From Escherichia phage vB_EcoS_HdSG1, in the sequence record MK373795.1: 63,595 nt of DNA. The stretch is one strand, 5' to 3'. The position numbers and the translations under genes are program-made. How positions within the stretch are numbered: the stretch's first letter is position 1; each line of letters starts with the position of its first letter. Of the stretch, positions 1,023 to 2,888 are shown piece by piece. The notes beneath the pieces are model-generated. The model was not told the origin of the DNA. It saw only the letters and a program-made list of their open reading frames with translations, and ran no database searches.

Positions 1023-1286
1023 TTAGCAGTTTTTTAACAGGTTGATGAAGCCCACCAGCGTGGACGCGGTTGCAACCAGGCGGCCCATAGTATGCAATTC
1101 CGCGTGAACTTTACCGTCGTCAAATACAGTTAAATAAACGTTAAGACCATTGCAACGGACGCGATATTTGCGCGAGTTATTACCGAAAGTTTCTAGCTCT
1201 GCGGTGATAGTCGCAAGATTAGCTATACGTTTGCCGATAATGCGGCGAGTGATAGTGGACTGGTTTAATACTGTAGACATAATCAT
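1023..1286 (-). CDS. hypothetical small protein, ITxRIIGKR-motif paralog A
   Basis: 87-aa ORF; RBS AGAGGAA; N-terminal STITRRIIGKRIANL...AEL aligns with SQITKRIIGKRLYQL...AEK of CDS 2583..2888. Confidence 0.65.
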   Translation of the reverse strand: MIMSTVLNQSTITRRIIGKRIANLATITAELETFGNNSRKYRVRCNGLNVYLTVFDDGKVHAELHTMGRLVATASTLVGFINLLKNC

Positions 1287-1311
1287 TTCCTCTGTTAACT
1301 ATGCGAAGTGC

Positions 1312-1340
1312 ATATTATTGCCCACTGTTACTATGGGCAA
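1312..1340 (-). promoter_or_regulatory. sigma70-like promoter overlapping a palindromic motif
   Basis: Minus strand reads TTGCCC, 17-nt spacer, TAATAT, about 25 nt upstream of the 1286 start; overlaps palindrome ATTGCCCA-N9-TGGGCAAT at 1317..1342. Confidence 0.4.
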
Positions 1341-1348
1341 TGTATATG

Positions 1349-1513
1349 TCACTCAGCGGACACATATTCTAACGCTTCTGATAGTGTAGCGAAGTGACCA
1401 TCACTCACCAGATTAATAGCGTACTCAAGTTCATCTCGGGTCAGGTTGCGAAACTTGTTACGGATGTGATAGCAACGACCGCGATAAATAAGCTGGAAAT
1501 AGTTGCGTTCCAT
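1349..1513 (-). CDS. hypothetical protein (54 aa)
   Basis: Internal ATG of track ORF 1349..1669 chosen at 1513 because of RBS AAGGGGA and no overlap with upstream gene. Confidence 0.5.
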   Translation of the reverse strand: MERNYFQLIYRGRCYHIRNKFRNLTRDELEYAINLVSDGHFATLSEALEYVSAE

Positions 1514-1523
1514 AATTATCCCC

Positions 1524-1769
1524 TTATGCAACGATGAACGCGTAACCGCTTTGATCCGGGAGTTCACCACCGGCAACAATCTCAAATTCAACACCCGCTC
1601 TAGCGTTGAACTTTTTGATAAGCTCTTCCGCTGCGGCGCGGTGGTTGCCGTAAACACCCAAATCGTCACGCCACGTGATAGTCAAGGAGCCGTTCCAGCC
1701 TGTTGCTTTTACGCGCGGGTTACGGGTGGCAGTTGGGTTAACGAATTTGGTGATGATAGCTTGAGCCAT
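1524..1769 (-). CDS. hypothetical protein (81 aa)
   Basis: ORF with RBS GGAGTAATTATC before ATG at 1769. Confidence 0.65.
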   Translation of the reverse strand: MAQAIITKFVNPTATRNPRVKATGWNGSLTITWRDDLGVYGNHRAAAEELIKKFNARAGVEFEIVAGGELPDQSGYAFIVA

Positions 1770-1774
1770 GATAA

Positions 1775-1960
1775 TTACTCCGGTAAAATTACAGTGACGT
1801 TAATATTTGCAAGGCGAGCGCACTCGCGGAAACCTTTTACATAAGCATCCATTTCGTCATAGGATGCGAAAGTTGCGTCCGGGACTGGTCCGTTGTTAAT
1901 ATTCACGCAATATTCGTGTTCGTCCAGGTCAACCCAGCAATTCAGAACGATAGTTTCCAT
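1775..1960 (-). CDS. hypothetical protein (61 aa)
   Basis: ATG at 1960 preceded by GGGGGG; the track start at 1993 is a TTG; stop of upstream tiny ORF lies 1 nt before this ATG. Confidence 0.55.
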   Translation of the reverse strand: METIVLNCWVDLDEHEYCVNINNGPVPDATFASYDEMDAYVKGFRECARLANINVTVILPE

Positions 1961-1961
1961 A

Positions 1962-2036
1962 TTATTTGCCCCCCGTATAGTAAAGACCCGCAACTATTGG
2001 AGCTCCGAACACTAAGAAAGCTAATAAGTAGAACAT
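1962..2036 (-). CDS. tiny hydrophobic peptide (24 aa, MFYLLAFLVFGAPIVAGLYYTGGK)
   Basis: Hand-translated; RBS AAGGGGG 9 nt upstream; starts 2 nt after stop of 2039..2506 and ends 1 nt before next ATG; below the track length cutoff. Confidence 0.45.
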   Translation of the reverse strand: MFYLLAFLVFGAPIVAGLYYTGGK

Positions 2037-2038
2037 AA

Positions 2039-2506
2039 TTAGTTACCCCCTTTATTGTTGAGCCCGTTGAATTTACGCCATGCGTAGAATTCAATCGTTG
2101 CATTATTAATATTCCAACCATTAGCTTTCGCAAGGTCACGCACGTTACCAATAGTTGGCACACTATCAGGTAACATATTATCCAGGGCATTCCAAACGTC
2201 TGCACATTTACCTTTAATTGGGCGGCGGACCCCGTTGCGCGTTTTACCTTTGGCGGGAGCGACCGGAGCTTGTTGTGTGGTCACTTCCACGACAGTCGCT
2301 TTATCAGCTTCCACCAGATCGTTAGCTGCCTTATTAACGGCGCTTTCGCTGAACCAGTAGCGACCACCGTCTTCCATAGGTTCCTGGTGAATAAAGCTAT
2401 TTGCTGTCGCTGTGTCTACGTCCAGAACCTTTTTCAAGGCACGGCGAGCGTTAGACATGTTGGTAAAAAAGCGAGCATCTTTTGCTACGCGAGTGATAGT
2501 AACCAT
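2039..2506 (-). CDS. hypothetical protein (155 aa)
   Basis: ORF in operon; start taken at MVTITRV (ATG 2506, GGAG upstream); alternative ATG at 2521. Confidence 0.65.
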   Translation of the reverse strand: MVTITRVAKDARFFTNMSNARRALKKVLDVDTATANSFIHQEPMEDGGRYWFSESAVNKAANDLVEADKATVVEVTTQQAPVAPAKGKTRNGVRRPIKGKCADVWNALDNMLPDSVPTIGNVRDLAKANGWNINNATIEFYAWRKFNGLNNKGGN

Positions 2507-2547
2507 TGTGAATATCTCCATGTTGTTCTAGCGGATTGCTAGTGGGA

Positions 2548-2569
2548 GCCCACTGTTACAATGGGCAAC
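2548..2569. promoter_or_regulatory. palindromic motif GCCCACTGTTACAATGGGCAA (second copy, operator-like)
   Basis: Near-identical to 1317..1342; intergenic, immediately upstream of the 2506 start. Confidence 0.4.
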
Positions 2570-2582
2570 CATTAGCACGCTA

Positions 2583-2888
2583 TTATTGTTGAATAGCTTT
2601 ATCTATCATTGCGATGAAGCAGAACACAGACCAAAGGCTATTCGCTTGGCATACTGCGCGACCATACATTACGCTATAAGAGCTGACAGTGCCGTCCTCG
2701 TTAATGCGAATATATAACGCGGTGCTGGAATACTTTTCGTTGCCCGGGAGCATTACCAGATACTCATCATAATCCCAATCCCCGCTGACTTTTTCCGCTG
2801 TAAGGCCCAGCTGATACAGGCGCTTGCCAATAATGCGCTTAGTAATTTGAGATTGGGACATGGAACGCGGTAAGTAGATAATGGACAT
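2583..2888 (-). CDS. hypothetical small protein, ITxRIIGKR-motif paralog B
   Basis: Start at internal ATG 2888 (MSIIYLPRS) with RBS AAGGGAGA; first gene of the repeat operon; paralog of 1023..1286. Confidence 0.65.
   Translation of the reverse strand: MSIIYLPRSMSQSQITKRIIGKRLYQLGLTAEKVSGDWDYDEYLVMLPGNEKYSSTALYIRINEDGTVSSYSVMYGRAVCQANSLWSVFCFIAMIDKAIQQ

Follow-up and report, generated by a model that had tools for sequence, protein, structure and literature searches.

The left end of the genome of Escherichia phage vB_EcoS_HdSG1, a Nonagvirus (9g-like E. coli phage), carries two small genes, here called A1 and A2, whose products share an N-terminal ITxRIIGKR block. The locus raises the question of whether the two proteins are true paralogues, whether the shared block is a binding module joined to different effector ends, as proposed in the first-pass annotation, and what such proteins may do for the phage. 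All positions given below refer to the window, i.e. the whole analysed stretch of 63,595 nt.

Gene boundaries and the terminal repeat

Both open reading frames are present on the minus strand, and the peptides quoted in the first-pass annotation are correct. A1 (1023-1280, minus strand; GenBank HdSG1_00002, hypothetical protein) encodes 85 residues and A2 (2583-2888, minus strand; HdSG1_00007) encodes 101 residues, and both are members of phrog_13865. The start of A1 had previously been set at 1286, which is 6 nt, or two codons, too far upstream: comparison of start codons revealed that the ATG at 1286 is missing from JenK1, BRET and FritzHoffmann, and the Shine-Dalgarno sequence AGAGGA fits the ATG at 1280, which we therefore took as the start. 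The start of A2 at 2888 was retained, since a longer, 140-aa version of this frame (to 3005) is broken by in-frame stops in JenK1, BRET, JenP1 and SP8; its Shine-Dalgarno sequence, AAGGGAG, lies 8 nt upstream.

The left direct terminal repeat (1-3363) is identical to 60233-63595 over 3363 nt with 0 mismatches, and the right copy contains the second copies of A1 (61255-61512, minus strand; HdSG1_00089) and A2 (62815-63120, minus strand; HdSG1_00094). The codons of the shared motif are located at 1233-1262 in A1 (QSTITRRIIG) and at 2826-2855 in A2 (QSQITKRIIG), both on the minus strand, with the repeat copies at 61465-61494 and 63058-63087. In a six-frame translation the pattern Q..I..R[ITLV][IVL]G occurred at exactly these four places, which, together with the exact repeat, bears out the earlier count of four copies per virion genome. 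The record of the related phage HdK1 was deposited with the same terminal duplication.

Both genes belong to a leftward operon of seven small ORFans that is headed by A2 and lies wholly within the repeat, as does its promoter region. The operon is bounded by a sigma-70-like promoter candidate, ATGACT-16-TATAAT (3191-3218, minus strand; predicted by a consensus scan, 10/12), and by an intrinsic-terminator-like hairpin with a T run (695-721, minus strand). A leftward promoter is annotated in the same intergenic region of the 9g record, and a terminator is annotated at the corresponding place in HdK1 and SP8. The neighbours of A1 and A2 are phrog_3199, phrog_18706 and phrog_17772 proteins without a toxin domain, and none of the seven proteins of the operon had a match in Pfam, NCBIfam or PADLOC. 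The phrog_3199 family is itself duplicated in this operon: B1 (745-993, minus strand; 82 aa, E = 5e-25), the last gene before the terminator-like hairpin, is directly downstream of A1 and is its probable partner, and B2 (1524-1769, minus strand; 81 aa, E = 2.7e-30) is a second paralogue that can be aligned with B1. A 45-nt, 91% match to Pseudomonas phage Kassivere (1729-1773), considered as a possible match to the A1 motif, coincides with the beginning of B2, and the protein encoded there in Kassivere belongs to phrog_3199; this match is irrelevant to A1 and A2.

Homology and predicted fold of A1 and A2

BLASTP aligned A1 with A2 at 26 identical residues out of 77 (34%, E = 2e-9), with 14/24 identities in the N-terminal block and about 12/53 after it. 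The full-length Smith-Waterman score was 79, as compared to 22.6 +/- 3.9 for 5000 shuffles (z = 14.5, attained by 0/5000). The N-terminal block alone gave z = 9.8 (0/5000), and the part following GKR, taken on its own, gave a weak but significant z = 4.9 (4/5000). Both proteins also matched phrog_13865 along nearly its whole length: residues 2-87 of A1 on profile positions 5-95 of 101 (E = 5.6e-37) and residues 1-101 of A2 on positions 1-101 of 101 (E = 4.7e-59). Taken together, these results indicate that the similarity goes beyond composition and extends past the N-terminal block. Thus the pairwise alignment and the profile search, both suggested as checks in the first-pass annotation, were significant, and the description of the pair as two paralogous small proteins with a common N-terminal block is supported.

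Apart from the shortness of the proteins, nothing spoke for a compositional accident, a shared DNA or RNA element or a recent gene conversion as the source of the likeness, and we consider such an origin practically ruled out. No shuffled sequence attained the observed score, the PHROG E-values were of the order of 1e-37 and 1e-59, and no Rfam match was found in 1-3600. In the 12-residue motif block, 10 residues are identical between A1 and A2, and six of these ten are encoded by different codons; judged from the codons, the ITxRIIGKR block is conserved at the protein level and not at the DNA level. Both genes are under purifying selection, with dN/dS of 0.06-0.17 for A1 and 0.05-0.20 for A2. 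The proposal of a duplicated family is supported by the single PHROG, the single predicted fold and the selection on both genes. We conclude that A1 and A2 are old paralogues, of 31-34% identity, in one lineage-restricted single-domain family.

AlphaFold2 models of A1 (pLDDT 81.9; helix 7-20, five strands, helix 75-83) and A2 (pLDDT 75.8; helix 12-26, five strands, helix 85-100) predicted for each protein one compact two-layer alpha+beta sandwich, in which a five-stranded antiparallel meander lies between an N-terminal and a C-terminal helix. The ITxRIIGKR block forms the N-terminal helix (helix 1) of this single domain. Helix 1 is the best-conserved element of the family, with a mean column entropy of 0.98 bit versus 1.65-1.88 in the strands, and contains four (Q, I, R, G) of the seven residues invariant in the 21-sequence alignment (Q7, I10, R13, G16, Y39, G56 and G66 in A1 numbering), all seven of which are carried by both A1 and A2. 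R13 is the only invariant one among its basic residues; many family members have S/Q/C and W in place of K17 and R18. According to a helical wheel, from which the buried and exposed faces were taken in place of model coordinates, the isoleucines I10, I14, I15 and I19 would occupy a hydrophobic face packing on the sheet, and the invariant Arg13 and Gly16, with R12 and K17, would lie on the opposite, polar face and may together offer a small, basic site for docking. The two paralogues differ in the surface of the same domain, A2 having six extra residues in a loop and a longer C-terminal helix.

These models bear on the idea that a conserved N-terminal peptide for binding is joined to C-terminal effector domains that have diversified. 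The part of this idea that stands is that the N-terminal block is best conserved, as seen from the drop in identity after it and from the low variability of helix 1. Separate effector ends, however, were not recovered: structure prediction, which had also been suggested, gave the same compact fold for both proteins, with helix 1 as an integral layer of one small domain, and the 60-80 residues of beta-meander plus one helix that follow leave no space for a separate effector. The parts after the motif are still alike, one PHROG profile covers both proteins along their length, and no catalytic motif was found in the Pfam, NCBIfam and PADLOC searches. We therefore regard a modular architecture as very improbable.

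The models show the helix, antiparallel beta-meander, helix topology of RWD-like and frataxin-like sandwiches, but sequence and profile homology to these families was absent, with no Pfam match at E <= 1. The RWD-like/Med17 C-terminal and frataxin/CyaY-type sandwiches, which are eukaryotic scaffold domains or iron-binding proteins, resemble A1 and A2 in fold class only, at 6-16% identity. A further candidate for a likeness in fold was TriTu, which confers immunity to the Salmonella Rhs toxin TreTu (PDB 7zhm_D; 6-7% identity). In contrast to TriTu, which belongs to an Rhs locus, A1 and A2 are phage-encoded next to an unrelated family of 81-82 aa (B), and neither is encoded beside a toxin gene. 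Since this alpha+beta sandwich is very common and the matches had 5-16% identity, they tell little about a target. A Foldseek search of BFVD yielded no match at E <= 0.001, and the matches it listed were uncharacterised or clearly unrelated. Matches of the family profile to PDB sequences (designed beta-trefoils and antibody chains) were spurious and repeat-driven, and no catalytic or known domain was found in Pfam, NCBIfam, PADLOC or the PDB sequences.

Distribution of the family and its adjacency to phrog_3199

The A family is tiny. An HMM scan of 1.84 billion representative proteins gave 12 matches, three of which, long proteins that matched in many stretches, were set aside (the two whose sequences were inspected are repeat proteins of eukaryote type); this leaves about 9 true representatives at 50% identity. 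The family is confined to Queuovirinae-like phages and, among 185,579 bacterial and archaeal species genomes, was seen only in one 291-bp Dyella japonica contig, best read as contamination with phage DNA. Both A1 and A2 are present in 8 phages, only A2 in 9g, JenP1, SP8 and SE1, and only A1 in FritzHoffmann and Klebsiella-type relatives; no Nonagvirus examined was without an A gene. The genes that head the operon in contigs L011 and L014 and in JenP1 (the 'MLNLN...' family), considered as remote analogues of A2, had no match to the A-family HMM.

Identical sequences have already been deposited as hypothetical proteins, and the deposited members include HdSG1_00002/00089, HdSG1_00007/00094, JenP2 gp75, 9g_00038, bas20_0071 and bas19_0077. 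In PHROGs v4 phrog_13865 is listed as function unknown, and no annotated or experimental function was found anywhere in the family. The literature on Nonagvirus, 9g, JenK1 and Queuovirinae contained nothing on these genes, and we found no mention in it of the within-genome paralogy or of the pairing with phrog_3199. A1 and A2 differ in nothing of kind from the rest of phrog_13865, a family that is simply uncharacterised.

In all relatives examined, a phrog_3199 gene directly follows the A gene, except in the A2 lineage. In the window B1 follows A1 after 29 nt, and the same order was found at nine other loci (L004-L006, L011-L015 and L017); the adjacency covers the window, FritzHoffmann, three Klebsiella/E. 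coli Queuovirinae phages and four metagenomic contigs, with the two genes overlapping by 4 nt, abutting directly or separated by 20-29 nt. The two families are unrelated to each other as judged by hhalign. A2 has no adjoining B gene, and B genes are also found without A, e.g. in Pseudomonas phage Kassivere. B is far commoner than A (169 versus 11 clusters), and 9g, JenP1 and SP8 have one A gene and two B genes. Since B occurs without A and is far more widespread, a complex with A is not obligatory for B. On gene order, the adjacency could be plain synteny in one narrow lineage.

Possible roles of A1 and A2

We tentatively favour a reading, to which we assign a probability of about 40%, in which A1 and A2, as old single-domain paralogues, are early, non-enzymatic, protein-binding accessory factors that likely act with B and modulate a host target. 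They would be transcribed early by the host RNA polymerase, a timing taken from the consensus promoter match, and would lack enzymatic activity. Each may bind another protein, most likely in a stoichiometric complex with a co-translated B partner, and so modulate a host target in takeover or counter-defence. From the diverged surfaces of the paralogues we propose partly overlapping but distinct specificities for A1 and A2.

A neighbouring possibility, somewhat unlikely in our estimation, is that A1 and A2 are independent single-protein inhibitors of a host protein and that the A-B order was merely inherited. The solitary position of A2, the occurrence of B without A in Kassivere, the far wider distribution of B, the uneven gene numbers in 9g, JenP1 and SP8 and the lack of relation between the two sequences are all in line with it. 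However, the stop/start overlap or abutment is kept at A-family identities down to 24-31%, as is typical of translationally coupled partners, and both families are duplicated in one operon. The most far-reaching version of the partnership, in which A and B form a new two-protein early module of Queuovirinae, duplicated into A1-B1 and A2-B2, docking via the Arg/Gly face of helix 1 and countering or taking over the host, appears doubtful to us. In such a module, placement in the terminal repeat would make the genes present at whichever genome end enters first, and the constant retention of at least one A copy would mark a required counter-measure.

Alternatively, A1 and A2 could be nucleic-acid-binding regulators, with the basic N-terminal helix (R12, R13, K17, R18) contacting DNA or RNA; in one form of this explanation, A2, as the promoter-proximal gene of the leftward operon, would control its own expression by acting on the divergent promoter region, for example through three tandem 27-nt repeats at 3069-3144. 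These repeats have a palindromic core, TACCTGGTA, which leaves a 1-nt loop. A1 is strongly basic (pI 10.0, +5.7 at pH 7), the polar face of helix 1 presents an invariant Arg and Gly, A2 lies next to divergent promoters, as a first regulatory gene would, and the leader repeats are conserved. However, A2 is nearly neutral (pI 7.7), the basic residues K17 and R18 are not retained across the family, and the profile libraries detected no HTH, RHH or other nucleic-acid-binding family; a match to MotA, a double-wing protein, was weaker than many unrelated matches, and neither A1 nor A2 has a recognisable DNA-binding domain of the HTH, RHH or MotA type. Nor do the repeats track the A family: JenP1 and the Klebsiella-type phages have an A gene and no repeat core, and contigs L011 and L014 have the core with only an A1-type gene. 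The presence of the repeats is uncorrelated with A1 or A2, and they were rejected as a binding site of the A proteins. On balance, regulation through nucleic acid seems unlikely.

Lambda N is an antiterminator of the arginine-rich-motif type, disordered and binding the boxB hairpin. A2 resembles it in having a basic N-terminal helix and in heading a leftward operon, presumably early in HdSG1. Unlike N, A1 and A2 are confidently predicted folded domains; the helix of A2 has only 3-4 basic residues, half of them variable, and only R13 is invariant in the family. A boxB-like hairpin and Rfam elements were both absent from the leader (Rfam on 1-3600). A likeness in layout is offered by the pre-early genes of phage T5, which are small, mostly uncharacterised and located inside a long direct terminal repeat of about 10 kb. 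As in T5, the A genes lie wholly inside a direct terminal repeat and therefore at both genome ends, and the host RNA polymerase presumably reads both blocks. No sequence relation between the two was found, however, and the HdSG1 repeat is shorter (3.4 kb). We know of no two-step DNA entry in Nonagvirus.

Paralogous ORFans are common in phage early regions, and A1 and A2 are ordinary in this respect and do not represent a novel type of system; no question of long standing depends on them. If the favoured role in protein binding is correct, they would extend by one the list of families of small phage proteins that are made early and bind a host or partner protein. The BASEL collection makes use of Nonagviruses, a group known for modifying its DNA with deazaguanines, and a paired, duplicated early module that is naturally present in some phages and missing from others would make it easy to look for a new takeover or counter-defence activity. 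Such variants exist: A1 and A2 are both present in Bas19, A2 is missing from Bas20 and A1 from 9g.

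Two paralogous genes within the terminal repeat

Positions 1-3363 of HdSG1 are identical to 60233-63595 with zero mismatches and form a 3363-bp direct terminal repeat (DTR), and the region 500-3500 shares 91-96% identity with Nonagvirus phages (JenK1, JenP2, HdK1, 9g, SE1 and others). The inner boundary of the left DTR (3363/3364) matches GenBank position 28,243 of phage 9g, which was read as a physical genome end in a study where the repeat size could not be established (PMC4276943). Both genes considered here, A1 (1023-1280; HdSG1_00002, DTR copy HdSG1_00089) and A2 (2583-2888; HdSG1_00007, DTR copy HdSG1_00094), are minus-strand reading frames annotated in GenBank as 'hypothetical protein'.

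The two proteins were 34% identical over 77 residues (BLASTP, E 2e-9), and in Smith-Waterman comparisons against 5000 shuffles the full-length score lay 14.5 sd over the mean (0/5000). The N-terminal block containing the ITxRIIGKR motif, which the first-pass annotation had singled out, scored 9.8 sd by itself (0/5000) and is thus significant beyond composition; the portion after 'GKR' scored 4.9 sd (4/5000). As both proteins also matched phrog_13865 end to end (E 5.6e-37 for A1 and 4.7e-59 for A2), the similarity is, on these alignments, genuine and reaches beyond the N-terminal block. Among orthologues, dN/dS was 0.06-0.17 for A1 and 0.05-0.20 for A2, so both are genuine genes under purifying selection. 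Of the ten residues that A1 and A2 have in common in the 12-residue motif, six are encoded by different codons, so that neither recent gene conversion nor a common nucleic-acid element can account for the similarity; an Rfam search of 1-3600 gave no match. An origin of the similarity in chance or in a DNA-level element can be regarded as refuted.

The start of A2 at 2888 was confirmed, since the 140-aa reading obtained by upstream extension is interrupted by in-frame stops in four relatives (JenK1, BRET, JenP1 and SP8). A1 had been started at 1286; this ATG is not conserved in relatives and the Shine-Dalgarno sequence fits the ATG at 1280, so that A1 comprises 85 aa. In HdSG1 the frame upstream of A2 (2889-3005, minus strand) is open, and the 140-aa reading is annotated in ChristophMerian as bas19_0077. 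The DNA immediately 5' of the A2 start codon is strongly conserved despite the stops in the four relatives, which suggests a conserved leader and not coding sequence.

The leftward operon and the A-B gene pair

The genes belong to a leftward operon lying entirely inside the DTR, between a sigma-70-like promoter candidate (3218-3191, minus strand) and a terminator-like hairpin (721-695, minus strand). Its order is A2, a 160-aa protein (phrog_17772), a 61-aa protein, B2, a 54-aa protein, A1 and B1, and none of the seven products has an assigned function. B1 (82 aa; 745-993, minus strand; DTR copy 60977-61225) and B2 (81 aa; 1524-1769, minus strand; DTR copy 61756-62001) are members of phrog_3199 with about 30% identity and constitute a second paralogue pair, family B, with no relation to family A.

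In all relatives examined outside the A2 lineage, a B gene comes immediately after the A gene, and this order persists down to 24-31% family A identity. The two genes overlap by 4 nt in the related loci L004, L005, L006, L012, L013 and L014, abut directly in contig L011, and are separated by 20 nt in FritzHoffmann and by 29 nt in HdSG1. Adjacency of this type is what translationally coupled partners usually show and may be read in this way here, or may reflect inherited synteny within one lineage. Family B is much commoner than family A (169 clusters) and occurs without it in Pseudomonas phage Kassivere. A 45-nt DNA stretch at the start of B2 is 91% identical to Kassivere gene 00107, whose protein (MAHAIITKFVNPTASR...) is also a phrog_3199 member.

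The operon is mosaic, with an extra 88-aa gene in BRET (L008 2306-2572) and SP8 (L010 2018-2284) and an additional 102-aa gene upstream of A2 in JenP1 (L009 3003-3311). An HNH homing-endonuclease gene lies just right of the repeat boundary in HdK1 (L001 3536-4015) and just downstream of B1 in JenP1 (L009 529-1002); HdSG1 has none at these two positions. In 9g, JenP1 and SP8, where A1 is missing, the B1 allele is just 62-66% identical to that of HdSG1. Among relatives from E. coli, Klebsiella and metagenomes, the operon gene conserved best is that of the 160-aa protein (2039-2521, minus strand), whose C-terminal 60-90 residues represent a shared domain, since four other PHROGs, of unknown function, match there; this domain had no Pfam or PDB match.

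Predicted fold and possible function

AlphaFold2 gave models of identical topology for A1 (pLDDT 81.9, pTM 0.71; helix 7-20, five strands, helix 75-83; built on a deeper alignment) and A2 (mean pLDDT 75.8, pTM 0.65; helix 12-26, five strands, helix 85-100), the strand 2-3 loop and the last helix being longer in A2. In an alignment of 21 sequences, Q7, I10, R13, G16, Y39, G56 and G66 (A1 numbering) were invariant, and column entropy was lowest in helix 1 (0.98 bit; strands 1.65-1.88, helix 2 1.29). On a helical wheel of helix 1, I10, I14, I15, L/M/I19 and L22 share one face, and R12, R13, G16 and K17 the opposite one. From helical geometry, not model coordinates, we infer that R13/G16 make up a conserved patch on the exposed side, with the isoleucines packed against the sheet.

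Each protein is thus modelled as one domain and not as a binding peptide with a variable effector. The first-pass annotation had been right about the duplicated family and its four copies per genome, the DTR being exact and the pattern Q..I..R[ITLV][IVL]G occurring in the six-frame translation exactly four times (A1, A2 and their DTR copies); its common binding module with diversified effector ends was not upheld and, given the similarity after 'GKR', is very improbable.

The alpha+beta sandwich predicted here is a very widespread fold, characteristic of inhibitor domains and of domains that mediate protein-protein interaction, and matches to it do not establish homology. Neither Pfam, NCBIfam nor PADLOC contained a match for A1 or A2, a PDB sequence search with family A returned nothing genuine, and a BFVD structure search nothing useful. 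We tentatively favour (probability about 0.4) small non-enzymatic accessory proteins, expressed early, that would bind another protein and might serve in takeover or counter-defence. The A proteins would probably act in complex with a B partner, docking could take place through the conserved R13/G16 face of helix 1, and divergence in the sheet and the C-terminal helix could confer differing specificities on the two paralogues. An alternative is that the proteins are independent inhibitors forming no A-B complex, which we consider rather doubtful in view of the persistent gene order.

The possibility that A1 and A2 are nucleic-acid-binding regulators draws on the basic character of A1 (pI 10.0) and on A2 being the first gene beside a divergent promoter region in which palindromic repeats are conserved. 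These direct repeats, three in tandem and each of 26-27 nt (3069-3144 and 63301-63376), lie downstream of the leftward promoter candidate and ahead of the A2 start. They carry a 9-bp palindromic core, TACCTGGTA, whose exact sequence occurs nowhere else in the HdSG1 genome, and might serve the divergent promoters as operator or activator sites. HdK1, 9g, JenK1, BRET and SP8 retain two or three copies, and the distant contigs L011, L014 and L015 have a TACC(C)TGGTA form of the core. However, the core is absent in JenP1 and Klebsiella-type relatives, so the repeats do not co-occur with family A, A2 is neutral and no DNA-binding fold was seen, which makes regulators of this kind unlikely.

Distribution of family A

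A word-indexed search found 11 clusters of family A, and 12 matches came from an HMM scan run exhaustively over 1.84 billion representatives. Three of these 12 were discounted as spurious, being long proteins matched in many stretches, of which the two that were read were repeat proteins. IMG/VR contained nine family A loci, all Nonagvirus-like, and 185,579 bacterial and archaeal species (one genome each) yielded a single match, a 291-bp contig of Dyella japonica DSM 16301. On these results, only lytic enterobacterial siphophages of one narrow group carry family A. The 90%-identity clusters of A2 and A1 also include RefSeq entries filed under Dyella japonica (WP_046973292.1, on a 3.4-kb contig) and Luteibacter rhizovicinus (WP_211258567.1, partial), respectively. 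The bacterial-filed proteins lie on contigs of at most 3.4 kb, with sizes near the DTR length, and these, like the 291-bp contig, look like contamination of bacterial assemblies by Nonagvirus DNA.

We found no literature on these genes. Databases already list the family, as a catalogued PHROG and as deposited hypothetical proteins without known function. A1 and A2 are ordinary paralogous ORFans, presumably early, and the only mildly interesting extras are that the A-B pairing is conserved and that both families are duplicated together within the DTR.

Both genes are present in HdSG1, HdK1, JenK1, JenP2, BRET, ESCO3, ChristophMerian and PD328; 9g, JenP1, SP8 and SE1 have A2 without A1, and Klebsiella-type relatives have an A1-type gene only. 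No genome in this small sample lacked both, which fits partial redundancy. FritzHoffmann has A1 without A2, whose slot is filled by an unrelated acidic 57-aa protein (L017 2896-3069). In a neighbour-joining tree A2 occupies a long deep branch, with 21-31% identity to all other family A members.
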